Positions 1-41,987 of a stretch of DNA of 41,987 bases are shown here, piece after piece. A program made the translations under genes and the position numbers. Within the stretch, counting starts at the first letter, position 1; each line of letters begins with the position of its first letter. The notes under the pieces are model-generated. The model was not told where the DNA came from. It saw only the letters and a program-made list of their open reading frames with translations, and ran no database searches. Source of the stretch: a virus (taxonomy: Duplodnaviria; Heunggongvirae; Uroviricota; Caudoviricetes); the IMG/VR virus record IMGVR_UViG_647533160_000006, positions 1 to 41,987 of that record. One strand, written 5' to 3'.

Positions 1-933
1 ATGGACAACGACAAAATTGATCAACACAGCGACGAAATTGAAGTTGAGAGCGAAGAAAAAGAGCGCGGCAAAAAAATAGAAATAGATGAAGATCGACTCC
101 CCTCCCGGGCGATGGCAATTCATGAGCATATCCGCCAGGATGGTGAAAAAGAGCTGGAACGCGACGCAATGGCACTACTGTGGTCAGCCATTGCGGCGGG
201 TCTGTCGATGGGCGCTTCACTACTGGCAAAAGGGATATTTCATGTCGAACTGGAAGGCGTGCCGGGCAGCTTCTTGCTGGAGAATCTCGGTTATACCTTT
301 GGTTTTATTATCGTCATTATGGCCCGCCAGCAATTATTTACCGAAAACACCGTGACTGCGGTACTACCCGTCATGCAAAAACCGACAATGAGCAACGTTG
401 GCTTACTTATGCGGTTATGGGGCGTCGTGCTGCTGGGTAATATTCTCGGGACAGGTATTGCGGCGTGGGCATTTGAATATATGCCAATCTTCAATGAAGA
501 AACTCGCGATGCATTTGTCAAAATCGGCATGGATGTGATGAAGAACACCCCCAGCGAGATGTTTGCCAACGCGATCATTTCCGGCTGGCTGATCGCCACT
601 ATGGTTTGGATGTTTCCTGCAGCGGGTGCGGCAAAGATTGTGGTGATTATATTGATGACCTGGCTTATTGCACTGGGTGACACCACCCACATCGTTGTCG
701 GTTCTGTAGAAATCCTCTATCTGGTGTTTAACGGCACGCTGCACTGGAGCGATTTCATCTGGCCCTTCGCACTACCTACTTTAGCGGGGAACATCTGCGG
801 CGGCACCTTTATCTTCGCGTTAATGAGTCATGCACAGATCCGTAACGACATGAGCAACAAGCGCAAAGCCGAAGCACGCCAAAAAGCAGAACGTGCGGAA
901 AACATTAAGAAAAATGATAAAAATCCGGCATAA
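1..933 (+). CDS. yfdC: FNT-family inner membrane channel YfdC (chromosomal flank)
   Basis: 310-aa ORF from window start with multiple hydrophobic segments; N-terminus MDNDKIDQHSDE matches my recollection of E. coli YfdC; lies immediately upstream of argW as in E. coli. Confidence 0.85.
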   Translation: MDNDKIDQHSDEIEVESEEKERGKKIEIDEDRLPSRAMAIHEHIRQDGEKELERDAMALLWSAIAAGLSMGASLLAKGIFHVELEGVPGSFLLENLGYTFGFIIVIMARQQLFTENTVTAVLPVMQKPTMSNVGLLMRLWGVVLLGNILGTGIAAWAFEYMPIFNEETRDAFVKIGMDVMKNTPSEMFANAIISGWLIATMVWMFPAAGAAKIVVIILMTWLIALGDTTHIVVGSVEILYLVFNGTLHWSDFIWPFALPTLAGNICGGTFIFALMSHAQIRNDMSNKRKAEARQKAERAENIKKNDKNPA

Positions 934-1008: not shown

Positions 1009-1083
1009 GTCCTCTTAGTTAAATGGATATAACGAGCCCCTCCTAAGGGCTAATTGCAGGTTCGATTCCTGCAGGGGACACCA
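1009..1083 (+). tRNA. argW: tRNA-Arg (anticodon CCU)
   Basis: 75-nt sequence GTCCTCTTAGTT...GCAGGTTCGATTCCTGCAGGGGACACCA; acceptor stem pairs, anticodon loop CTCCTAA, T-loop GGTTCGATTCC, encoded CCA end. Confidence 0.9.
1069..1083 (+). other. attL core (prophage left junction inside argW 3' end)
   Basis: 15-bp CTGCAGGGGACACCA at the 3' end of argW is repeated exactly at 40284-40298; integrase gene follows ~160 bp downstream. Confidence 0.6.
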
Positions 1084-1244
1084 TTTATCAGTTCGCTCCC
1101 ATCCGTACCAGTCCGCAAAATCCCCTGAATATCAAGCCTTCCGTATATTCAAAGTTCGTCATGGTTCGCGTCAGATCGTTGACAGCCGCACTCCATGACG
1201 GGTAAAAAGTGGATAAAATAATTTTACCCACCGGATTTTTACCC

Positions 1245-2402
1245 ATGCTCACCGTTAAGCAGATTGAAGCAGCAAAGCCGAAAGAAAAACCATACCGCCT
1301 TCTCGATGGTAATGGCCTGTACCTTTATGTCCCTGTATCCGGGAAAAAGGTATGGCAGCTTCGCTACAAGATTGACGGTAAGGAGAAAATCCTGACCGTA
1401 GGAAAATATCCGCTAATGACTTTGCAGGAGGCAAGGGATAAAGCATGGACTGCGAGGAAAGACATCTCGGTTGGCATCGATCCGGTAAAAGCGAAAAAGG
1501 CTTCGTCTAATAACAATTCCTTTAGCGCCATTTACAAGGAATGGTACGAGCACAAGAAGCAAGTCTGGTCAGTAGGGTATGCGACTGAACTTGCCAAAAT
1601 GTTTGATGACGACATTTTACCTATCATCGGCGGCCTTGAAATTCAGGATATTGAGCCGATGCAACTGCTGGAAGTAATCCGCAGATTTGAAGATCGCGGT
1701 GCAATGGAGCGAGCCAACAAAGCACGCAGAAGATGCGGCGAGGTTTTCCGTTACGCTATTGTCACCGGCAGGGCTAAATATAACCCGGCACCTGACCTTG
1801 CTGACGCCATGAAGGGATACCGCAAGAAGAACTTCCCGTTTCTTCCTGCAGACCAGATCCCGGCATTCAACAAAGCACTGGCAACATTTTCAGGAAGTAT
1901 CGTATCGCTCATTGCGACTAAAGTTTTGCGCTACACAGCCCTAAGAACGAAAGAGCTTCGCTCCATGCTATGGAAGAACGTTGATTTTGAAAACAGGATT
2001 ATCACCATCGACGCCAGTGTGATGAAGGGACGCAAAATTCATGTGGTCCCGATGTCAGACCAGGTGGTTGAACTTCTCACTACACTAAGCTCAATCACTA
2101 AACCAGTATCAGAGTTTGTTTTTGCCGGGCGCAACGATAAGAAAAAGCCAATCTGCGAGAACGCTGTGCTACTTGTGATCAAACAAATCGGCTATGAGGG
2201 TCTGGAAAGCGGCCACGGATTCAGGCATGAATTCAGCACGATTATGAACGAGCACGAATGGCCTGCTGACGCTATTGAAGTGCAACTGGCACATGCCAAC
2301 GGCGGATCTGTGCGCGGTATTTACAACCATGCTCAGTATTTCGATAAGCGCAGAGAAATGATGCAGTGGTGGGCGGACTGGATTGATGAAAAGGTGGAGT
2401 GA
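1245..2402 (+). CDS. intS: Tyrosine recombinase / phage integrase (IntS-like)
   Basis: ORF next to argW; translation from MLTVKQIEAAKPKEKPYRLLDGNGLYLYV gives 385 aa, the length I recall for E. coli IntS; the track ORF starts at an upstream GTG (1209) without a convincing RBS. Confidence 0.85.
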   Translation: MLTVKQIEAAKPKEKPYRLLDGNGLYLYVPVSGKKVWQLRYKIDGKEKILTVGKYPLMTLQEARDKAWTARKDISVGIDPVKAKKASSNNNSFSAIYKEWYEHKKQVWSVGYATELAKMFDDDILPIIGGLEIQDIEPMQLLEVIRRFEDRGAMERANKARRRCGEVFRYAIVTGRAKYNPAPDLADAMKGYRKKNFPFLPADQIPAFNKALATFSGSIVSLIATKVLRYTALRTKELRSMLWKNVDFENRIITIDASVMKGRKIHVVPMSDQVVELLTTLSSITKPVSEFVFAGRNDKKKPICENAVLLVIKQIGYEGLESGHGFRHEFSTIMNEHEWPADAIEVQLAHANGGSVRGIYNHAQYFDKRREMMQWWADWIDEKVE

Positions 2403-2512: not shown

Positions 2513-4819
2513 CTAAGGACTTATTGCCCCAAATGCTTTGAATATTGCACCTTCCCCTTCTCCAGAAGATGTGCATACAAAACCAATGTGACCACCTGGC
2601 GAAGGATTTTTGAAAAATAAAACATCTCCTCTAACCCAATATCCAGTTTTTGGCAACTGTGTTACAGAAAATATTCTTTGATACCCTGCTACATTCTGCG
2701 ATTCATACAAATATGAATCCGTCCCTAAAGAAAGGAATTGTTTTGCCCCTACAGAAGATTTGGCATCACTATCAACAAGGCGACCCGCCCTTCCCCCTGA
2801 ATTTATTAATGGATACAACCAAAGTATGGTGTCTTTCTCTTGCCCAACCCCTGATATTGCTGCATTTTTTATAGATGCATTTTCAATTCCAGACACACCT
2901 ATATATGCTCGTTGCGAATCGGTACCGTTACCTATTGTCCTATTTATTAATTCAAAATTTTCTATCTTTACTGGATTTTCAAAATTAAGTATTTTTATAC
3001 CATTTGTTGCGGCAAACGTGATATCTCCGTTAACAGTGACAGTCAGGCCATCTATTACAGCTTCATATATTGAACCTATTGTTCCTCTTCCAGGCTTGAA
3101 CCCGGATGATATGATATTACATTCACTGAATGTTAATCTAATTATTTTAGAACTATCAAAATGGGTGCCATTTGATGCGTTCGTTAAAGAACCGTCTGGC
3201 TTGGTATCATAATGATTACATCTTATCAGTTTTGCAGCTCTTAAGTCGACTGAATGATCAAAGAACTCATTTCTGTGCTCTCCAATCAACCCTCTAAAAG
3301 TGCAATCAATGTATTTTAAATTAGGTGTATTTGATTTGCATGTTATGTTGAAAGAATTTGAAAGATATGAGTTTACCACCTTAATGTCATTAACTGGATT
3401 CGATTGAGTCCTATAGATGCTAAATGAAGAGAATTTTGCTTCATTTGCAGTAACTCCTTCAAGTACTACATTTGAAATTTTGCGTACTTCTGACTCTATG
3501 GCAAAGTTATGTCCAGGTGAACTTGATATACTACCAAGCCCGGAGTTATAGGCGTCGCCACTAATATAAATATTGTCTCCGCCAGCAACAACAAAAGCTG
3601 AACGCCCCATTTTGTTAATAGAGAAATTAGTAACTCGTGAATAACAATCATCTCCATTCAATCCTGCTAAATAAATAGCATCCATTGCTCCGTCATATGC
3701 TGTATAATGTGCATCAAATATCAAAACCTTATGATCAATAAACCAAAATCCATATTCTGGACATTGATATCCAGAATCCCCGAACTCCCCGCCTAATATT
3801 ACACTCTTTCCATTGAAATCAATATTAACTCTTCCTGAGATGGAAATAATTGGACAGCCATTAAACCCAAATAAAATACCTCTATTTGCACGATAGTCAA
3901 AATTTGTTTGAATTGTTTTAATTGGGAGGCCAGTTACCGGATCAAATGACCCAACCCGCAATCCATCTGAGAAAATAAAATTGCTATCATTAAATTCATA
4001 CCGCAGTGGATAATTGAAATTTCTTACTGTACATTTCTGGTTTGGTATATAAGACCCGCCAAATCCTGTCGCACCTGAAAGATACTGGCTTCCAACATAA
4101 AAATCTCCTTTTGGAAAAATTACCCTCACAGGCCCACTTCTTGTTTCAATATATCTCGCAAGCCTTTCAAGAATTTCATCATTTTTTGCACCATCATTAC
4201 TTTCATGTAACTTAAATGGTTCTATTCCTACATATATTGTTTCTTCTTTTATAAAAGAAACAGGCTCCCATAATGAAGGTTCTGGGTAACTCCCAGGAGG
4301 GACAAGAACATTATCTAATCCTTTCCTTGTATAAACTTTACCTTCTTTAAGAAAAAGCCCTGCCTGTCTCCTGTCGTCAATTGTAAATCCTGACTCAAAT
4401 GTTCCTATTAGATTAATACCATAGCTATTAGATAGCTCTTTCCAAATATTAAAAAGATTATGCTCCACCTGTTTCCGTAACTGATCAGGATCATACTTCA
4501 GCACATTCGGAAAATAGAACTGCTGCGCCCCATATGCATCGTACACAGCCATAGAATGACCTTGCACAGTTACGAACTTGGCAATCTGTCCGTTATATAC
4601 CGGATATCCGGCAGCGTTAATGATGATTGGTTGCGAAACGGGAACGTGAGAACCGTCTTCGTTCTCCACATAAACCTGAATCTGGTTTTCAGGATTTACC
4701 GGATCAGTGTCAATTTTACCGATATAAATTTTGCCATTGGCTACGGCTTTAAAAGAACGAGCCATAGTGAAGAGTTGCGAAGGCATAGATACAATCACAT
4801 TGGCTGTAATGTCTGTCAT
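2513..4819 (-). CDS. Tailspike protein (P22 gp9-like N-terminal head-binding domain, divergent receptor-binding region)
   Basis: 768 aa; first ~110 aa ([43 protein letters not shown]...VLKYDPDQ) match the recalled P22 tailspike head-binding domain; the remainder is not recognisably P22, Sf6 or HK620. Confidence 0.85.
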
Positions 4820-5798: not shown

Positions 5799-5866
5799 GT
5801 CAATATTTCCTAATCCGATTTGTTGATACCGAAGCCCTGACTGTTCCCGCAGTTGGGGCTTCAACT

Positions 5867-6028
5867 TTACGCGCCAATGCGCCCTTCCTTCTTAAAGCTT
5901 TCCATTACTCTCTGATAAATCTCAGAGTTAACAGACCGACCATTCTCTTCCGCCACCTTGCGTACCAAATCCAATACTTCTTTAGGCCACCGCAAATTGA
6001 ACTGCGGCATCTTGCTCATTCCTTTCAT
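5867..6028 (-). CDS. arc: Arc repressor (ribbon-helix-helix)
   Basis: Translation [53 protein letters not shown] (53 aa) is essentially the P22 Arc sequence as I recall it; the track ORF is extended upstream. Confidence 0.9.
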
Positions 6029-6044
6029 ATTCACCTCACAATAT

Positions 6045-6061
6045 AGGTCCACCGTGGACCT
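6045..6061. promoter_or_regulatory. Mnt operator (Omnt)
   Basis: Perfect 17-bp palindrome AGGTCCACCGTGGACCT in the arc-mnt divergent region. Confidence 0.8.
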
Positions 6062-6070
6062 ATTGAGAAT

Positions 6071-6091
6071 ATAGTAGAGTGCTTCTATCAT
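6071..6091. promoter_or_regulatory. Arc operator (Oarc)
   Basis: 21-bp ATAGTAGAGTGCTTCTATCAT, matching the Arc operator as I recall it, adjacent to Omnt. Confidence 0.75.
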
Positions 6092-6118: not shown

Positions 6119-6370
6119 ATGGCTAGAGATGATCCGCACTTTAACTTCCGTATGCCTATGGAAGTAAGGGAGAAATTAAAATTCAGGGCGGAGGCGAATG
6201 GGAGATCAATGAACTCCGAGTTGTTACAAATCGTCCAAGATGCTCTATCAAAACCATCGCCTGTGACTGGATATCGCGACGATGCAGAACGACTCGCTGA
6301 TGAGCAGTCAGAGCTTGTTAAGAAGATGGTGTTTGATACGCTGAAGGATTTGTACAAAAAACCCACCTGA
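6119..6370 (+). CDS. mnt: Mnt repressor
   Basis: 83-aa product MARDDPHFNFRMPMEVREKLKFRAEANGRSMNSELLQIVQDAL... matches recalled P22 Mnt; divergent from arc. Confidence 0.9.
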   Translation: MARDDPHFNFRMPMEVREKLKFRAEANGRSMNSELLQIVQDALSKPSPVTGYRDDAERLADEQSELVKKMVFDTLKDLYKKPT

Positions 6371-6388
6371 AGGTGGGTCCTATTTATT
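6356..6388. terminator. Bidirectional hairpin terminator (mnt 3' end / lipoprotein gene 3' end)
   Basis: ACCCACC-TGAA-GGTGGGT flanked by an A-run on one side and CCTATTTATT on the other; convergent genes end here. Confidence 0.65.
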
Positions 6389-6806
6389 AGTCTTGCTTTG
6401 TTGATGGTATAAGAGATGCGTTTGCCTCTTTTGGCTTCAAGGTATACATCCCACCATTAAAAGGATCTACAGCAAGCCAACCAATTAACCCACCAAACAC
6501 AAGGTTTCCACCAATATACCAACCATTAGCATTGGCTTTGATTGGCAGGGTAACTGGTTCGTACCCATCCTTTTCCATAGTGATCTGGTAGCTCTTTTTG
6601 CCAAAATAACTACCATCTGACTTGGCAAGAGTTACTCCTTGCGGGGTCTTGCCTTGCGCAACAATCACGCCTGATTCGTCTTTTACTTTAAAGCTCGCAC
6701 CGGAAGGATTGCTGTTCACTTGCACGAGCTGTGTTTCGTCACCAACAATAGTTGCGCACCCAGATAACAATATAGCGCCAGCAACAACGCCGATAATCCT
6801 CTTCAT
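6387..6806 (-). CDS. Putative lipoprotein with PEGA-like domain (accessory gene in sieA slot)
   Basis: Signal peptide plus lipobox MKRIIGVVAGAILLSGC; PEGA-like pattern SNPSGA...GKTP...KDGYEP; C-terminal Gly-rich hydrophobic segment; sits between gp16 and mnt. Confidence 0.6.
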   Translation of the reverse strand: MKRIIGVVAGAILLSGCATIVGDETQLVQVNSNPSGASFKVKDESGVIVAQGKTPQGVTLAKSDGSYFGKKSYQITMEKDGYEPVTLPIKANANGWYIGGNLVFGGLIGWLAVDPFNGGMYTLKPKEANASLIPSTKQD

Positions 6807-6924
6807 ATCAATTTCCATATTTGAAAAAACCGGAAACATCCTAATGACAAACCATTCAAATGTGAAGTAGGCAAAAGATGTTTACTTTTTTCATGGTATC
6901 CTGCGAAAAACTAAGGAGGTTGGT

Positions 6925-7254
6925 GTGTTAGAAATAGTCGTACTCGCTCTTGGGATATCCTGTTGCGTACTATATGCAGGGTTAGCTGCCCTCAAGAAAC
7001 AGGTTAAGGAATTAGATCGCTCACATGAAATTGATACAAAAATTGCGCGATTAACAGAAGAGAATAAACACTTAAAAAATTCCATAAGGGCACTAACTGA
7101 TGACAACTACAAACTGTCCCATGCATTGGCTAAGTGGGAAATAGTAAGTTATGAAAGAATGACCGACATGATTTTTTCGTCTTATATGGCTACAAAATCT
7201 CCTGAAACATCAGGAAAAGCAATAATTGCAGCCATTGAAAAGAGAATTAAATAG
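6925..7254 (+). CDS. Small membrane-anchored coiled-coil protein (accessory gene in sieA slot)
   Basis: GTG start 5 nt after AGGAGG; N-terminal TM helix (LEIVVLALGISCCVLYAGLAAL) then heptad-like charged helix; divergent from the lipoprotein gene. Confidence 0.6.
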   Translation: MLEIVVLALGISCCVLYAGLAALKKQVKELDRSHEIDTKIARLTEENKHLKNSIRALTDDNYKLSHALAKWEIVSYERMTDMIFSSYMATKSPETSGKAIIAAIEKRIK

Positions 7255-7273: not shown

Positions 7274-9115
7274 CTACTGCCTGGTAGCTTCGTTAGTTAG
7301 GAGAGGGCGAACGGCGTTAGCAGCCTGATTTAACGCTCGCTCATATGCCGGAGTTCCAGGCTTGACGTTTGCAAGGCGGAGAAGCATGTTTCTTGCTGCT
7401 TTAGACTCATACAAACGCATCATTGCACCAAAGCCAGCCTCAAGCCCCATTGATACGCCAAGAGTTGCAGTTGCGCCAATCGTCCTTATCCTGTTGGCTT
7501 GCGATTGCCCCGTCTGAGTTACTACATTTGCGGTGTCTGACCTTGCTGTTTGCTGTAGAACTTCATGAAGAGCATCAAGCTCTTTCATGTGCTTTCCAGA
7601 AAAAATAGTGTTGTAAATTTCACCGCCTGACTGAGATTTCAGCTTATTAACTTCAGTGATGAACTTGGCTGGAGAGTCACCGGCCTTTTCCGCTATTTTG
7701 CTGACGTAAGCTGCACGCATAGCATCTTTCCCTTTATCATCCAATGCGCTCCAGATTCGTTTCACGTCAGATGGTTTTCTGCTTAATACAACGGTATTTA
7801 TAAGTTCAGGACTGGCTTCACTGCTTGCCTTGTTGAGCTTGTTAGCAATGTTTTTATTAAGCACCTTATTATAAACGTTTGCATAATCGGAATTTGCTTT
7901 AAGGTATTTTGCTGCGTCTGATGCACCGAGGTTTTTAGCAACTGCGTTACGAAGGTCTTTTGACATTGCATTCTCTACCATATTGGTAGCTGCTTTTGCC
8001 TGGTTGGGGAAGACCATAGCATCTCCCTGAACATTAGATCTAAATGCTGTTCTGTGCTGACGCAAGAGATCAAACGTAACATCCAAATCAGTTGCAGGGT
8101 TTGCTAATTCTTCACGTAGGTTACGCAAGGATGTAAGCAGGCTTTGATTGGCAGACGTCCCAAGCCGTTCCTGTCTTGCGATCGCTGTATTCAGAGCATT
8201 CATGGTATTTGTGGTATCAACTGCGGCATTACCCATTTTATTGGTGACGTCATTGATAACAGCGCCAGCGGCATCCTTCCGCCACCTTAACGTGGTGGTC
8301 AGAGATTTCACCACATCATCAGGGTTATACTCACCAAAACGGTCAAAATAATTACTTACCAGCTTACTACGCGTTGCATATTGCTCAGCTCGCTTTGAGC
8401 CTGTCCCGAGCAAAGCTCCCTCGGCATCCTGAGTAAGGCCGCGAGTGAAAGCATTTTTCGGCGGGATAACATCAGATGTCATTGGTGTCACGCCCATCGA
8501 TTCTGATGTGGCAATTTTCTTCGCCACTTCTGGCGCAATATCACCTTTTATAGCCGTTATTCCACGCCCTATTCCCTTTGCTGCTGCGGAAAGAACACCC
8601 TGAGCGGCAAGGTTAACTCCGGCATTTTTAGCTGCATTTTGTGCGAAATCGCCTTTCTGATTTGCGGCCTCTGCCAGTGATCCAATAGCCATGCTTCCTG
8701 CCGTTCCAACTCCTGGAACTAAATACCCACCAATTGTTTCACCTGCTTGTGCGTAGGGGTCTGTCGGTCTGTCTACTGGACGATAGACATCATCCAATAC
8801 TTTTGGCCCACCAAGCCCCTGACTGATTGCATTAATCAGACTTGCGCCACCCTGCAATACGTCAAATGGTATGTTTACCAGACCACGACCAGCCTGTTCT
8901 GTAATTTGCCCTGCACTTTGACCACCAGTGAGCCAACCGCCAGCTTGTTGCATCAATGATGGTTCTTCCCGTGTTGGTGCATTATTGGCATGATTAACTG
9001 TTTGTTGCTGAACAGCCTGACCAGCAAAATACTCATCAATGGCGGTGCCAATATCTTCGGTGCTCGTACCATCAGGAAAGGTAAATGTCTTACCGTTTGC
9101 AGTTACTTTCATCAT
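7274..9115 (-). CDS. Ejection (DNA transfer) protein, P22 gp16-like
   Basis: 613 aa, last gene of the late operon, size and order as P22 gene 16; Ala/Gly-rich. Confidence 0.8.
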
Positions 9116-10527
9116 TCCACCGTAAATTGAATGCCTGATTTTGAGGTATATGATCCAACCTGATTCCGTGGTTCTCCTGAAGGTGTCGAATCTTGTGCTG
9201 GCGCTGCGTCAGTATTCATTGACATATACCGCTTAACGGCACTCCCCAATGATTCACCTTTTTTAACATCCAACCCCAATATCTGACCGCCATTACGCGA
9301 TTGTCCAGGGTTGCCATTCGCGCTCATCCACTCGGCTTTAAACTCATTAAACTGCGCGTTTCGTCGCTCAAGGTTTGCCATTGCATCAAGCCATCTTGCG
9401 ACCGTCTCAGGGTTATCCATGTCAGTTGGCGCACCCTGTCGAACGATCTCAACGTCTTTATCCGTTGCTGGGCCGGGAGGTAGGAATTTAAGAACCTGAC
9501 TGTTAACAAGGGCATTTTGGCGAATGCGCAAATCACGCAATGTTGTATCGCTTCCGGTAAGTTTTGCGAACATGTTCTGTGCGTTACCGAACAAACCTGT
9601 CGTTGGTTTTTCTGCTCTGAACTGTTGAGCAAGCGCACTCATGGAATTGGCTGAGTTTGATGATGCTGTGGCATTGTTTACAGCCGTCTCGATGCCTTTT
9701 TCCATATTTACTGACAGCTTAGGTGCTTCGCTAATCAACTGCTGAGCCTTTTCCTGCGCTTGCTGCATCTTAAACCCGAACTCTTGCTGATCCAGAGCCA
9801 AGCGTTGTGCTGCGATATTGTGCCCAGTCATTGCTGACTGATAGGAAAGGTTTTGCCCTCTCGCCTGAAGTGCTTCACCAGCCTGATTGCTGCGGATTGT
9901 CTCTGCCAGCCTGCCTCGGTCAATTTCACGACCAGCCATCTTATCCTGAACAGCAAACGCCTTTTCTGGTCCAAGCGCACCGAGAGACATAGTAGTCAGC
10001 ATGTGTGATAGCTGCTCTGGATTCTGGATACCTGTCTGAATCATCCAGTCAGCATTCGCACCAACGCGATTTAACCTGTCCTTGTTGTCAGTAATGAATT
10101 TACTGTAGGCTTCCGGTCCCTGAGAAAGAGCGACGTTAGCCCTCATGGCTAAATCGCCCATATCGTTGCGTTGCTGATCATTAAGACCTGAAAACGCCTG
10201 TTGTGCCTGTGCAACAAACGCTGGATTTTCCTGGGCAAACTTAAATAGTCCCGATGGATCACCAGAAGCCCATGCATCAGCATGAACCTTATTGAACGCA
10301 CTAATCGCTTTCTGTTGCTGTTCCTGATTGTAAATATCAGCAACTCCAGCCAGACCACGTAACGCGGTCAGACCAACGTTATTTGCACCTGAGCGAGCCA
10401 ACTCATTGTTTTCGCGGATCAGACCAAGCGTTGCGTTAATGTCGCTTGCCTTTGGCGCATTCTCATTTTGCGTACCGATGCCAGCCAGAAAACCACCAGA
10501 ATTAATACCCTGTTGCCACGTAGCCAT
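9112..10527 (-). CDS. Ejection protein, P22 gp20-like
   Basis: 471 aa (P22 gp20 is 471 aa), position between gp7 and gp16 homologs. Confidence 0.8.
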
Positions 10528-22039: not shown

Positions 22040-22507
22040 TCATCGAAGGCATTGCGTCCTGATGTATTCCTGAAGCGTTCTCAGTGCTGTTTGGTCGCGG
22101 ATAATTCCGTCCCGGATACCGAGAACGTTTCGTCCAGCAACTGGAGAGAGTTCGACGGTGGCATCATTGCCCATGCCGGAGGCGCTGGAGGTTTCGGCTG
22201 AGGATGGCACAGGGCATTTTCCTTTGACGAGCACCCTGCCACCATTATCAAGCTTGCGCCGAAGAGCATCATTTTCAGCTTTCGCATCAGCTAACTCCTT
22301 CGTGTATTTAGCATCGAGTGCATCAGCATCGCGCTGGCGCTGCTGCATGTCAGTAATGGTGGCAGTCGCCTGCTTCAGCTCTCTGACTTTTTTATCGCGC
22401 TGCTCCTTGTAGGCGATGGCGTTATCACGGTAATGATTAACAACCCACGACAGGCAGACGATGATGCAGATAACCAGAGCGGAGATAATCGCGGTGACTC
22501 TGCTCAT
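22040..22507 (-). CDS. Rz: Spanin, inner membrane subunit Rz
   Basis: [21 protein letters not shown]... matches recalled lambda Rz; start overlaps the endolysin stop (ATGA). Confidence 0.9.
22081..22287 (-). CDS. Rz1: Spanin, outer membrane lipoprotein subunit Rz1 (embedded in Rz)
   Basis: Embedded +1-frame [24 protein letters not shown] with lipobox and Pro-rich segment PPAPPAW. Confidence 0.75.
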
Positions 22508-22980
22508 ACCTCAATCTCTCTGACCGTTCCGCCTGCTTCTTTGAATTTTGCAATCAGGTTGTCAGCCTTATGCTCGAACTGACCATAACCAGCGCCCGGC
22601 AGTGAAGCCCAGATATTGCTGCAACGGTCGATTGCCTGACGGATGTCACCGCGATCAATCATCGGTAAAGCGCCACGCTCTTTAATCTGTTGCAATGCCA
22701 CAGCATCCTGGCTTTTCGGAGAGAAGTCTTTCAGGCCAAGCTGCTTACGATAGGCATCCCACCAACGGGAAAGAAGCTGGTAGCGTCCGGCGGCTGTTGA
22801 TTTGAGTTTGGGGTTTAGCGTGACAAGTTTACGAGGGTGATCGGAGTAATCAGTGAATAGCTCACCACCTACAATGACGTCATAACCATGATTTCTGGTT
22901 TTCTGACGTCCGTTATCAGTTCCCTCTGACCACGCCAGCATATCGAGGAACGCCTTACGTTGATTATTGATTTCCACCAT
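22504..22980 (-). CDS. R: Endolysin R (lambda-type lytic transglycosylase)
   Basis: 158-aa [39 protein letters not shown]... matches recalled lambda R. Confidence 0.9.
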
Positions 22981-23287
22981 CTTCTACTCCGGCTTTTTTA
23001 GCAGCGAAGCGTTTGATAAGCGAACCAATCGAGTCAGTACCGATGTAGCCGATGAACACGCTCGTTATATAAGCGAGATTGCTACTTAGTCCGGCGAAGT
23101 CGAGAAGGTCACGAATGAACCAGGCGATAATGGCACACATCGTTGCGTCGATTACTGTTTTTGTAAACGCACCGCCATTGTATCTGCCGCGAAGGTACGC
23201 CATTGCAAACGCAAGGATTGCCCCGATGCCTTGTTCCTTTGCCGCGAGAATGGCGGCTAACAGGTCATGTTTTTCTGGCATCTTCAT
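22964..23287 (-). CDS. S: Holin S (class I, lambda S107-like)
   Basis: 107-aa [39 protein letters not shown]... with dual-start motif, matches recalled lambda S. Confidence 0.9.
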
Positions 23288-38073: not shown

Positions 38074-38756
38074 TCAAGATTGACTATCAGGCACTGCGTG
38101 AAAAGGCAGAGAAAGCAACTAAAGGAAGCTACATCGTAGGGCATACATCTGTTAACCAGCACGGTAATTTAACAGGAGTTTTTGTTTGTCAAAAATGGAA
38201 AGGAGAACCCGGTGGCGTGATTGCAGAATGTCATGTTAACTGCCTGGTTGAAACAGATGCTCAGGCTTATGCAAACGCTGAATTTATTGCTGCCTTTAAT
38301 CCAAAGATTGCTCTGGCACTACTGGATGAACGGGAAAGAAACCAGCAATACATCAAATCACGCGACCAGGAGAACGAGGATATTGCACTAACGGTTGGGA
38401 AGCTGAGAGTTGAGCTGGAAGCCGCAGAGAAGCGCAACGCAAAATTACAAAGCGAGAATGCATACATCCGCAACCGGTACAAAGAACTGGACCTATTAAT
38501 CGGGAAAAACATTCTTGTCATGCAGGCTGCGATTATCGAATGGCAGGCAACTGGCGACGCTAAAAGCGGACTGGCATGGATTTATAACACACTGTTTGGC
38601 CAAGGCGAATTGCCGGACAAATCTGAGAAAGATGCTCAGGCCTACTTTAAGCGCAAATATGCACCGATTGACGAAAAGCTTATGGAGCTTCACAAGTGGT
38701 TTTGGGAGCAAAGTGAAGCCGAGCGCGCCGCTGGCATTCGCATCAAAGGAGAGTGA
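38070..38756 (+). CDS. Ead/Ea22-like early protein
   Basis: 228 aa; N-terminal [19 protein letters not shown]...FIAAFNPKIALALLDERE and central coiled coil resemble the Ea22-like family as I recall it. Confidence 0.6.
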   Translation: MIKIDYQALREKAEKATKGSYIVGHTSVNQHGNLTGVFVCQKWKGEPGGVIAECHVNCLVETDAQAYANAEFIAAFNPKIALALLDERERNQQYIKSRDQENEDIALTVGKLRVELEAAEKRNAKLQSENAYIRNRYKELDLLIGKNILVMQAAIIEWQATGDAKSGLAWIYNTLFGQGELPDKSEKDAQAYFKRKYAPIDEKLMELHKWFWEQSEAERAAGIRIKGE

Positions 38757-38757
38757 T

Positions 38758-39435
38758 ATGAGCGCTATAACCAAAGAACGTATCAAATTATTCATTAAAA
38801 ATCCGCTTGATAACGGGCTTACCCGTGGCGAACAAATGGAACTGGCACGGATTGCACTGGCATCGCTGGAACGCGAACAGATTCGCCACGAGCATGCCAA
38901 ATGGTCTGACTCCACATTTGGCTGCGTTGGCCCCATTGGTCCGCTGAAACATCTCTCAAAAGAGGCACTGGAAGCCGCAGCCGAACCAGACGATCTTAGC
39001 GAGTGGGCTGATATGCAGTTTCTGTTGTGGGATGCACAGCGCCGTGCTGGCATCAGCGATGCTGAAATTACCGTTGCTATGGAAGATAAATTGAAGATCA
39101 ACATGGAGCGCCAGTGGCCTGAGCCAAAAGATGGTGAGCCTCGCTTGCACATTAAAGAACCCGGCAACTCTCCGGTAACTCCGGATGGTTGGGTCATGGT
39201 GCCGAAGAGACTAACAGCCGAGAACGGCGCTAAGGGTGCGCTATCCGGTGAATTTTCAGAAACTACGTTTATCAGCTGCCCGGAATGCTTTGGCGATGAT
39301 GATTGCGATACCTGTGACGGTAGCGGGCGGATTGAAATTAAAGTACCAGTCACGTGGACGACCATAAAATCCATCTGGGATAAAGGTATTGCGTATTTTG
39401 CAGCAGAACCGCCTCAGGAGGTTAACCGTGGCTAA
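38758..39435 (+). CDS. Hypothetical early protein with C-terminal Cys cluster
   Basis: 225 aa from ATG overlapping the upstream stop; C-terminal CPECFGDDDCDTCDGSGR zinc-ribbon-like motif; the track ORF starts further upstream in-frame. Confidence 0.55.
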   Translation: MSAITKERIKLFIKNPLDNGLTRGEQMELARIALASLEREQIRHEHAKWSDSTFGCVGPIGPLKHLSKEALEAAAEPDDLSEWADMQFLLWDAQRRAGISDAEITVAMEDKLKINMERQWPEPKDGEPRLHIKEPGNSPVTPDGWVMVPKRLTAENGAKGALSGEFSETTFISCPECFGDDDCDTCDGSGRIEIKVPVTWTTIKSIWDKGIAYFAAEPPQEVNRG

Positions 39436-40739: not shown

Positions 40740-41987
40740 CTATATTGCTGAAGGTACAGGCGTTTCCATAACTATTTGCTCGCGTTTTTTACTCAGGAAG
40801 AAAATGCCAAATAGCAACATCAGGCAGACAATACCCGAAATTGCGAAGAAAACTGTCTGGTAGCCTGCGTGGTCAAAGAGTATCCCAGTCGGCGTTGAAA
40901 GCAGCACAATCCCAAGCGAACTGGCAATTTGAAAACCAATCAGAAAGATCGTCGACGACAGGCGCTTATCAAAGTTTGCCACGCTGTATTTGAAGACGGA
41001 TATGACACAAAGTGGAACCTCAATGGCATGTAACAGCTTCACTAATGAAATAATCCAGGGGTTAACGAACAGCGCGCAGGAAAGGATACGCAACGCCATA
41101 ATCACAACACCGATAAGTAATGCATTTTTTGGCCCTACCCGATTCACAAAGAAAGGAATAATCGCCATGCACAGCGCTTCGAGTACCACCTGGAATGAGT
41201 TGAGATAACCATACAGGCGCGTTCCTACATCGTGTGATTCGAATAAACCTGCATAAAAGACAGGAAAGAGTTGTTGATCAAAAATGTTATAGAAAGACCA
41301 CGTCCCCACAATAAATATGACAAAAACCCAGAAGTTTCGATCCTTGAAAACTGCGATAAAATCCTCTTTTTTTACTCCTCCCGCATCCGCCGCTATGCAC
41401 TGGTGATCCTTATCTTTAAAACGCATGTTGATCATCATAAATACAGCGCCAAATAGCGAGACCAACCAGAAGTTGATATGGGGACTGATACTAAAAAATA
41501 TACCGGCAAAGAACGCGCCAATAGCATAGCCAAAAGATCCCCAAGCGCGCGCTGTTCCATATTCGAAATGAAAATTTCGCGCCATTTTTTCAGTGAAGCT
41601 GTCAAGCAAACCGCAGCCCGCCAGATAACCCAGGCCAAAAAAGAGCGCACCCAGAATTAAACCTACAGAAAAATTGCTTTGCAGTAACGGTTCATAAACG
41701 TAAATCATAAACGGTCCGGTCAAGACCAGGATGAAACTCATACACCAGATGAGCGGTTTCTTTAGACCGAGTTTATCCTGAACGATGCCGTAGAACATCA
41801 TAAATAGAATGCTGGTAAACTGGTTGACCGAATAAAGTGTACCTAATTCCGTCCCTGTCAACCCTAGATGTCCTTTCAGCCAAATAGCGTATAACGACCA
41901 CCACAGCGACCAGGAAATAAAAAAGAGAAATGAGTAACTGGATGCCAAACGATAGTACGCATTTCTGAATGGAATATTCAGTGCCAT
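40740..41987 (-). CDS. cscB: Sucrose:H+ symporter CscB (LacY-family MFS)
   Basis: 415-aa 12-TM protein, start codon at the window edge; MALNIPFRNAYYRLASSYSFLFFISWSLWWSLYAIWLKGH matches my recollection of CscB. Confidence 0.8.
   Translation of the reverse strand: MALNIPFRNAYYRLASSYSFLFFISWSLWWSLYAIWLKGHLGLTGTELGTLYSVNQFTSILFMMFYGIVQDKLGLKKPLIWCMSFILVLTGPFMIYVYEPLLQSNFSVGLILGALFFGLGYLAGCGLLDSFTEKMARNFHFEYGTARAWGSFGYAIGAFFAGIFFSISPHINFWLVSLFGAVFMMINMRFKDKDHQCIAADAGGVKKEDFIAVFKDRNFWVFVIFIVGTWSFYNIFDQQLFPVFYAGLFESHDVGTRLYGYLNSFQVVLEALCMAIIPFFVNRVGPKNALLIGVVIMALRILSCALFVNPWIISLVKLLHAIEVPLCVISVFKYSVANFDKRLSSTIFLIGFQIASSLGIVLLSTPTGILFDHAGYQTVFFAISGIVCLMLLFGIFFLSKKREQIVMETPVPSAI

Follow-up and report, generated by a model that had tools for sequence, protein, structure and literature searches.

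Which genes take the place of sieA in P22-like phages, and do they protect the lysogen as sieA does? We addressed this question in a P22-like (Lederbergvirus-type) prophage of E. coli, IMG/VR virus record IMGVR_UViG_647533160_000006, of which the whole stretch of 41,987 nucleotides (nt), hereafter the window, was analysed. Between gp16, which encodes a DNA-ejection protein, and mnt, this prophage carries two small divergent genes, one for a lipoprotein and one for a 109-residue protein, ORF109, which an earlier note made from the sequence alone had placed in the sieA slot and proposed as candidates for a superinfection-exclusion or receptor-masking system. Both open reading frames (ORFs) are present as described there and are real, conserved genes, already annotated as hypothetical proteins of the 'ant moron', which is known to be variable and has been described as more so than any other part of the late region in P22-like phages (Villafane/Casjens; Villafane et al., 2008, PMC2629481). 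Literature searches turned up no functional study of either. A single copy of P22 sieA, with only 85 bp of the DNA upstream of it, was enough for 10^7-fold exclusion, and of the P22-like phages sequenced so far two thirds lack the gene (Leavitt et al., 2024, PMC10883804).

The sieA position and its cargo

P22 sieA runs towards gene 16 and stops 22 nt short of it; ORF109 stops 19 nt short of gp16. Since sieA is convergent with gene 16, only ORF109 occupies the sieA position proper: defined as lying between genes 16 and 9, convergent with 16 and behind a putative PsieA promoter, Shine-Dalgarno (SD) sequence and GTG, the SieA locus is filled by ORF109 and not by the lipoprotein gene, so the earlier placement survives for one gene of the two. 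The likeness extends upstream, where ...AACTTTTTTCATGGTATCCTGCACAAAACTAAGGAGGTTGGTGTG precedes sieA in P22 and the near-identical ...TACTTTTTTCATGGTATCCTGCGAAAAACTAAGGAGGTTGGTGTG precedes ORF109 in the window. This adaptor, with an extended -10-like element (TGGTATCCT), a perfect AGGAGG and a GTG start codon after a 5-nt spacer, forms part of a longer shared block (Table 1), and from the second codon on the sieA and ORF109 coding sequences are unrelated. A near-identical adaptor also stands 5′ of epsilon34 gp14, in SE1 and at HK620 hkcB, and 69 phage records contain the block, among them HK620, where it lies between hkcC and hkcB. Among five differing upstream contexts of ORF109, the only constant part is TG[G/C]TATCCTGC..AAAACTAAGGAGGTTGG[T/C]GTG. 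No classical -35/-10 promoter for ORF109 was found, the conserved part being the extended -10-like element only, which fits an extended -10 promoter that would need no -35, with a predicted transcription start near 6909 (plus strand).

To define the cargo of this cassette, we searched IMG/VR for the block and translated the downstream ORF, which gave 80-84 loci. The ORFs fall into 11 unrelated families plus truncations: sec129 (21 loci), ORF109 (15), gp14/hkcB (12), SieA (11), tm62 (6), tm75 and tm106 (5 each), tm149 (3), sec99 (2), and sol140 and sec68 (1 each). A transmembrane (TM) helix or signal peptide is found in nine of the 11, SieA included; all but SieA are 'unknown' in Pfam and PHROGs, and PADLOC recognises none of the slot cargo. 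The slot ORFs end mostly 0-57 nt from the gp16 stop codon, and a single gp16 C-terminal type (at least 95% identity) borders five different families, ORF109 and SieA among them; a protein-based search placed gp16 within 60 nt of ORF109 in 39 of 40 loci. The sieA position is thus a cassette in which a constant expression adaptor serves about a dozen unrelated families of membrane or secreted cargo, an arrangement undescribed as far as the searched papers show. Like the cargo sites of temperate phages (PMC13586616), it has rapidly exchanged unrelated genes between conserved flanks; it differs from them in carrying just one small ORF, for a membrane or secreted protein, on a common promoter, ribosome-binding site and start codon.

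The commonest occupant of the cassette is not SieA but sec129, a 129-residue secreted protein (PHROG 2651), and tiny two-TM proteins of 62 and 75 residues are also among the occupants. An identification of tm62 with orf62 of phage L, which would have counted against exclusion, proved wrong, tm62 being absent from L and ST64T. In phages Gally (locus L003, 3170-3655) and vB_EcoP-720R6 (locus L004, 1881-2366) the slot holds a 161-residue lipoprotein with a Q-rich coiled coil (PHROG 6067), which has a different 5′ region without the block and is paired with a lipoprotein of the window type. On the opposite side of the adaptor, P22, SE1 and HK620 have, as an alternative divergent neighbour of the slot, a gene for a HExxH protein that starts at the CAT within the conserved block. 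The window retains a 13-codon remnant, MKKVNIFCLLHI*, of such an hkcC-like gene of 121 residues (PHROG 1365), which we therefore interpret as the scar of the module exchange that brought the lipoprotein gene in.

ORF109 and the lipoprotein as separate morons

The earlier note had treated the two genes as one system, and their distribution speaks against this. Among 74 P22-like IMG/VR contigs bearing the lipoprotein gene, ORF109 is the neighbour in only 10, the slot holding otherwise sec129 (20), the 161-residue Gally lipoprotein (17), gp14/hkcB (12), tm62 (4), tm75 (2) or nothing (about 9); in epsilon34, Gally and 720R6 the divergent neighbour is epsilon34 gp14 or the 161-residue lipoprotein. 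The 40 contigs that carry ORF109 have the lipoprotein gene in 10 cases, the HExxH gene in 10 and other contexts in 20. Complete E. coli genomes give the same picture, with the lipoprotein gene in 126, ORF109 in 17 of 5426 and the whole 1.3-kb arrangement in 10. Because the genes assort independently, we reject the reading of a single system and regard them as two separate prophage morons. Patchy presence among syntenic phages and insertion between conserved genes agree with morons as defined by Juhala and Hendrix, and promoter-like and terminator-like motifs, identified as motif matches, are present and conserved.

The single hydrophobic helix and the coiled coil reported earlier for ORF109 are both there. 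AlphaFold2 models the protein as one long helix (residues 2-90) plus a short C-terminal helix, with a predicted local distance difference test (pLDDT) of 85. The a and d positions run in register through I36, I40, L43, N47, L50, I54, L57, N61, L64, L68 and W71, with the two Asn at a, and those from I40 to L68 are invariant or nearly so across the family. Uninterrupted heptads with Leu or Ile at a/d and Asn at a are the marks of a GCN4-type zipper, and ORF109 would thus be a parallel dimer; its profile matches to the GCN4, Fos and Jun zippers are weak (E about 0.02). Even in homologues with as little as 50% overall identity the final 38 residues do not vary, and the ratio of nonsynonymous to synonymous substitution rates (dN/dS) in the C-terminal third is 0.12. 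No Lys or Arg precedes the TM helix and four follow it (none before and 2-5 just after in the family), and because of this charge bias the positive-inside rule places the C-terminus, and with it the zipper and C-terminal domain, probably in the cytoplasm. The earlier suggestion of a prophage-expressed envelope site for both proteins is therefore supported as to the region, the ant moron being expressed from the prophage (PMC2629481), and revised as to exposure, since ORF109 is predicted to have its conserved part in the cytoplasm rather than exposed in the envelope.

ORF109 belongs to a small family of 14 clusters; it occurs in 13 phage records, always adjoins gp16 in P22-like prophages of E. 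coli, Salmonella and Klebsiella, and in SE1/ST160-type Salmonella phages stands next to the 121-residue HExxH protein. An exhaustive hidden Markov model (HMM) search of 1.84 billion representatives recovered only about five clusters of genuine ORF109 proteins, and remote relatives carrying other domains were not found. Matches to PADLOC LmuB and to DivIC, bZIP and ZapB proteins were judged to be coiled-coil noise.

The profile searches bear out the earlier statement that neither protein resembles SieA, nor was either found to be homologous to Cor, Llp or spanins; hhalign against P22 SieA gave probabilities of 0.3% for the ORF109 family and 0.4% for the lipoprotein family, and inspection of both window sequences found no FxRYPxEAxxFNK motif of SieA. 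ORF109 and SieA have in common their locus and strand, a near-identical 5′ block carrying SD and GTG, and almost equal distances to gp16, together with an N-terminal TM helix without preceding positive charge and a most conserved part that is predicted to be cytoplasmic. ORF109 differs in having one hydrophobic segment instead of the three TM helices of SieA, in its length (109 against 162-164 residues) and in its predicted dimeric leucine zipper. Epsilon34 gp14 and HK620 hkcB, which use the same cassette and adaptor, likewise have a TM helix, a coiled coil and a conserved C-terminus. The match of gp14 to ORF109 is limited to the coiled coil (33% over 67 residues; hhalign 56%) and the C-terminal domains are unrelated, so that homology is unproven.

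The lipoprotein ORF spans 6387-6839, and the true start is almost certainly the ATG at 6806 (MKRIIG...) rather than that at 6839, because every homologue, like the PHROG 6823 profile (E 8e-86), starts at that point, with MKR or MKK; the upstream ATG is overlapped by a promoter-like -10 (6843-6838), which is conserved, and transcription is predicted to start near 6831 (minus strand). The -35/-10 pattern recurs (TTCACG, 17 nt, TAAGAT) in the otherwise diverged intergenic region of Gally and 720R6. The N-terminus, MKR-IIGVVAGAILL-SGC, has the charged n-region, hydrophobic h-region and lipobox of a bacterial lipoprotein processed by Lgt and LspA. The lipobox L-S-G-C recognised earlier conforms to [LVI][ASTVI][GAS]C, Cys17 and Ala18 are invariant in 36 homologues and three family members match LPAM_1, from which the protein is predicted to be lipidated at Cys17 and, with Ala at +2, sorted to the outer membrane.

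An AlphaFold2 model from the 36-sequence alignment (mean pLDDT 78) predicts, with confidence, a beta-sandwich and a beta-hairpin (residues 121-131) that rejoins it; between them a hydrophobic Gly-rich helix is modelled, with low confidence, over the invariant WYIGGNxxFGGLIGWLxV segment (residues 95-112). The glycine-rich stretch is therefore internal, not the tail that had been supposed, and a conserved beta-hairpin follows it. The PEGA-like assignment is borne out at the level of a transthyretin-like beta-sandwich fold class and falls short at that of the family, PF08308 scoring 17.3-17.6 bits against a gathering cut-off of 20.8; five of 36 family members match it, all below the cut-off. Between Cys17 and the first modelled strand at residue 25 there is almost no tether, and this, together with the hydrophobic glycine-zipper helix, suggests that the protein would lie flush on the membrane leaflet.

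The lipoprotein matches epsilon34 gp15 at 98% identity, is also present in Gally and vB_EcoP-720R6, and belongs to a family with 728 homologues, which databases name only as 'hypothetical', 'PEGA domain-containing' or 'transthyretin-like'. In a pattern scan, 303 of 185,579 GTDB species genomes encoded the family, at 52-60% identity, with hosts that include Halomonadaceae, Pasteurellaceae, Shewanella, Nitrosomonas, Gallionellaceae, Mariprofundus and Syntrophaceae. Chromosomal copies occur in Enterobacter (among metabolic genes), Photorhabdus (between rimJ and murJ), Lonsdalea and Halomonas; across 80 species no shared chromosomal neighbour was found, the contexts being lineage-specific. Within Enterobacterales, phages have captured the gene in three contexts or more: it lies in the P22-like ant moron, between the genes for tail chaperone and tape measure in siphovirus prophages of Proteus and of the E. 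coli ED1a type, and between I and J in Pseudescherichia. The Proteus copy has a promoter-like site and flanking terminators. The family is thus old and mostly bacterial, the phage copy being a captured one, and its deep conservation makes the partner of the protein more likely a conserved host envelope component than a phage protein. That epsilon34 gp15 belongs to a pan-proteobacterial lipoprotein family repeatedly captured by phages is also undescribed as far as the searched papers show. In ED1a-type E. coli prophages, a porin gene (Porin_1/Porin_4; loci L005, L007 and L009, 10261-11424) lies between tail genes M and L, a second envelope moron of the lipoprotein-bearing tail cluster.

The prophage around the slot

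Since both ends of the window are host genes, the element is a prophage, with argW as its integration site. As in KplE1/HK620-type phages, the integrase is transcribed away from the tRNA gene. The late operon runs on the minus strand through gp20 and gp16 to the slot, beyond which lie mnt, arc, the sar RNA, ant and the tailspike gene. Detection of sar indicates that the immI module (mnt-arc-sar-ant) appears intact; arc is overstated by a 74-residue ORF (5867-6091), the protein having 53 residues in P22 and epsilon34. Within ORF109 and antisense to it, just past the gp16 stop codon, a hairpin with a T-run (7198-7217, minus strand) could be a late-operon terminator, an attenuator or a chance occurrence. 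A protein of the early left region (38515-39435, plus strand) has a dATP/dGTP pyrophosphohydrolase domain (PF04447, E 1e-41) and no PADLOC match.

Table 1. Coordinates in the window of the genes, signals and protein parts under discussion
Feature	Position	Strand	Remarks
FNT-family transporter gene, yfdC-like	1-933		host flank
tRNA-Arg(CCT)	1009-1083		host flank
Integrase gene	1209-2402		transcription directed away from tRNA
Tailspike gene	2513-4819		
sar antisense RNA	5800-5866	+	Rfam RF00262, 71.6 bits
mnt	6119-6370	+	left neighbour of the slot
G+C-rich hairpin	6361-6378		between convergent mnt and lipoprotein genes; annotated rho-independent terminator in epsilon34
Lipoprotein gene	6387-6806	-	139-residue precursor; epsilon34 gene 15, PHROG 6823
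Gly-rich helix of lipoprotein (modelled)	6524-6468	-	residues 95-113
Beta-sandwich of lipoprotein (modelled)	6734-6528	-	residues 25-93
Lipobox Cys17	6758-6756	-	
Sigma-70-like promoter of lipoprotein gene	6838-6866	-	TTCACA-17 nt-TAGGAT; motif match only
Remnant of HExxH gene	6856-6894	-	13 codons, hkcC-like
Longer shared block	6878-6927		
Cassette adaptor	6894-6927	+	extended -10-like element 6894-6902, AGGAGG 6914-6919, GTG 6925-6927
ORF109	6925-7254	+	PHROG 8100; GTG start
TM helix of ORF109 (predicted)	6934-6990	+	residues 4-22
Leucine zipper of ORF109 (predicted)	7030-7137	+	residues 36-71
Invariant C-terminal domain of ORF109	7138-7251	+	residues 72-109
gp16, DNA-ejection protein gene	7274-9115	-	stop is right-hand cassette boundary, 19 nt from ORF109 stop
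gp20	9112-10527	-	late operon
Rz-like spanin gene	22040-22507		PHROG 13, E 3e-75
Lysis genes (Rz-type spanin, endolysin, holin)	22040-23287		
LacY-family permease gene, cscB-like	40740-41987		host flank

Possible functions of ORF109 and the lipoprotein

We propose that ORF109 is one allele of a hot-swappable cassette, bounded on the left by the extended -10-like element, SD and GTG and on the right by the gp16 stop codon, of which SieA is another allele. Transcribed in the lysogen from the adaptor, antisense to the late operon, ORF109 would insert in the inner membrane with its N-terminus out and its C-terminus in, dimerise by its GCN4-type zipper and display the invariant 38-residue domain at the cytoplasmic face. 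There it may exclude superinfecting P22-like phages, its candidate targets being the inner-membrane end of the gp16/gp20 DNA conduit or a host factor that the conduit needs. The lipoprotein, captured from Proteobacteria with its own promoter-like signal upstream and hairpin terminator downstream, would sit on the periplasmic leaflet, its glycine-zipper helix buried in the membrane or resting against a conserved component of the host envelope, and act as an independent lysogenic-conversion factor of the outer membrane, for which an entry block like that of Cor and Llp is the foremost specific candidate. This combination, a lysogen-expressed inner-membrane dimer that excludes P22-like phages beside an independent conversion factor of the outer membrane, is tentative, and we place it slightly below an even chance. 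On positional evidence superinfection exclusion is plausible for ORF109; the case for the lipoprotein is weaker. A wider version, which we consider doubtful though possible, would make the gene-16-proximal slot a dedicated exclusion or defence site with at least 12 interchangeable small effectors (SieA, ORF109, hkcB/gp14, sec129, the Gally 161-residue lipoprotein, tm62, tm75, tm106, tm149 and others), in which ORF109 represents a new, zipper kind acting at the cytoplasmic face and the lipoprotein family has been co-opted by three phage lineages to close the outer membrane.

Several points weigh against the proposal. To our knowledge, no characterised injection blocker resembles a single-pass zipper that faces the cytoplasm, and the positive-inside rule is the only basis for that topology. 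The -35 region of P22 is not conserved in the window, so the ORF109 promoter is putative, and part of the shared block could be conserved merely as a recombination boundary or as a remnant of the hkcC 5′ end. A function is known for just one of about 12 slot families, and position in the slot amounts to guilt by association. Searches of Pfam, NCBIfam, PADLOC and PDB sequences gave nothing above threshold for ORF109 or for the lipoprotein, the Gly-rich helix of the latter is modelled at low confidence (pLDDT 56-58), and its deep conservation among free-living bacteria speaks for a general role in the envelope rather than phage defence.

This last point leads to the most serious contender, in which the lipoprotein is a host-fitness factor of the Bor/Iss type, concerned with envelope robustness, serum or bile resistance or vesiculation, that has no part in exclusion and supplies E. 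coli and Salmonella with a housekeeping-type lipoprotein they lack. Lambda Bor/Iss, which gives serum resistance, is likewise a prophage outer-membrane lipoprotein moron with bacterial homologues; it has no sequence relationship to the window protein. Cor of phi80, N15 and HK022 and Llp of T5 are outer-membrane lipoproteins that inactivate FhuA, and as small phage lipoproteins encoded beside tail genes they provide the model for an entry block through a host outer-membrane protein. They differ from the window lipoprotein in size and fold, and its family has widespread chromosomal orthologues. No Cor or Llp match was found over the mature protein (PHROG 1119 covers residues 12-31, the signal peptide, at E 0.0039; NCBIfam Cor, NF047972, scores 11.7 bits against a cut-off of 31), which, with the high conservation of the family on the chromosomes of many free-living Proteobacteria without phage neighbours, favours a fitness role. 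The carrier phages also differ in receptors and tail types, which therefore argues against the masking of one specific receptor. Against this, the phage copies always lie within tail or ejection clusters, twice in slots that hold proven exclusion genes, and HK97 gp15 is, according to the summary of Cumby et al. (2012) in PMC3594210, a YebO-derived inner-membrane exclusion protein. Like the members of the lipoprotein family in the E. coli ED1a-type and Proteus prophages, with which it was compared as to insertion site, gp15 is a small membrane protein from a bacterial family inserted between tail chaperone and tape-measure genes; it is a presumably unrelated protein of the inner membrane, whereas ours is predicted to be in the outer. 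It may be, however, that phages merely tolerate insertions at such sites (PMC2629481). As between a Cor/Llp-like entry block and a Bor-like fitness role, we consider the two about equally likely for the lipoprotein itself; a pure fitness factor with no exclusion role is, as a full account, unlikely.

The other alternatives concern ORF109. That its locus acts chiefly as RNA, through a transcript running antisense into the 3′ end of gene 16 and silencing the late mRNA of incoming relatives, has a reported precedent in STnc6030 of BTP1, which is expressed in the lysogen antisense to the 3′ end of injection-protein and the 5′ end of tailspike genes and gives BTP1 immunity (PMC7067206). ORF109 is indeed convergent with gp16 over a 19-nt gap, and no plus-strand terminator was found; yet the protein is under selection in its C-terminal part, it has a strong SD sequence, and a slot rich in unrelated TM or signal-peptide ORFs would be needless for a function in RNA alone, which makes this account improbable. 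Slightly less probable again is a service to the phage's own cycle, such as modulating late read-through into the tailspike gene or the handling of resident ejection proteins. The reported upregulation of sieA on induction (PMC10883804) and the tight linkage of ORF109 to the gp16 3′ end would suit it, but most P22-like phages lack ORF109, and since identical gp16 C-terminal types stand beside unrelated slot genes, ORF109 is not required for gp16 function. A trans-envelope partnership, spanin-like or two-component, in which an inner-membrane coiled-coil stalk reaches the outer-membrane lipoprotein, is disfavoured and very improbable. It would draw on divergence from a 118-bp intergenic region, on the pairing of a one-TM coiled-coil protein with a lipoprotein and on weak PHROG matches of ORF109 to Rz-like spanins (E 0.015-0.06). 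Unlike a two-component Rz/Rz1 spanin, however, the two genes assort independently and are not in the lysis cassette; a genuine Rz-type spanin, with endolysin and holin, is encoded elsewhere in the prophage; the charge bias would put the ORF109 coiled coil in the cytoplasm, and the lipoprotein, modelled as a compact beta-sandwich almost without a tether, is unlike Rz1.

SieA is the sole studied protein of the slot locus. If neither window protein gave a phenotype, they would be an ordinary pair of hypothetical moron genes. If, instead, other alleles of the cassette exclude phages, the slot would offer about a dozen small, easily cloned and mechanistically distinct inhibitors of podovirus DNA delivery, which could be used to dissect the gp7/gp20/gp16 conduit, and lysogen-dependent gaps in the host range of O-antigen-specific phages of E. 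coli, Salmonella and Klebsiella would be explained. The lipoprotein, for its part, provides a handle on an uncharacterised envelope family conserved across Proteobacteria.

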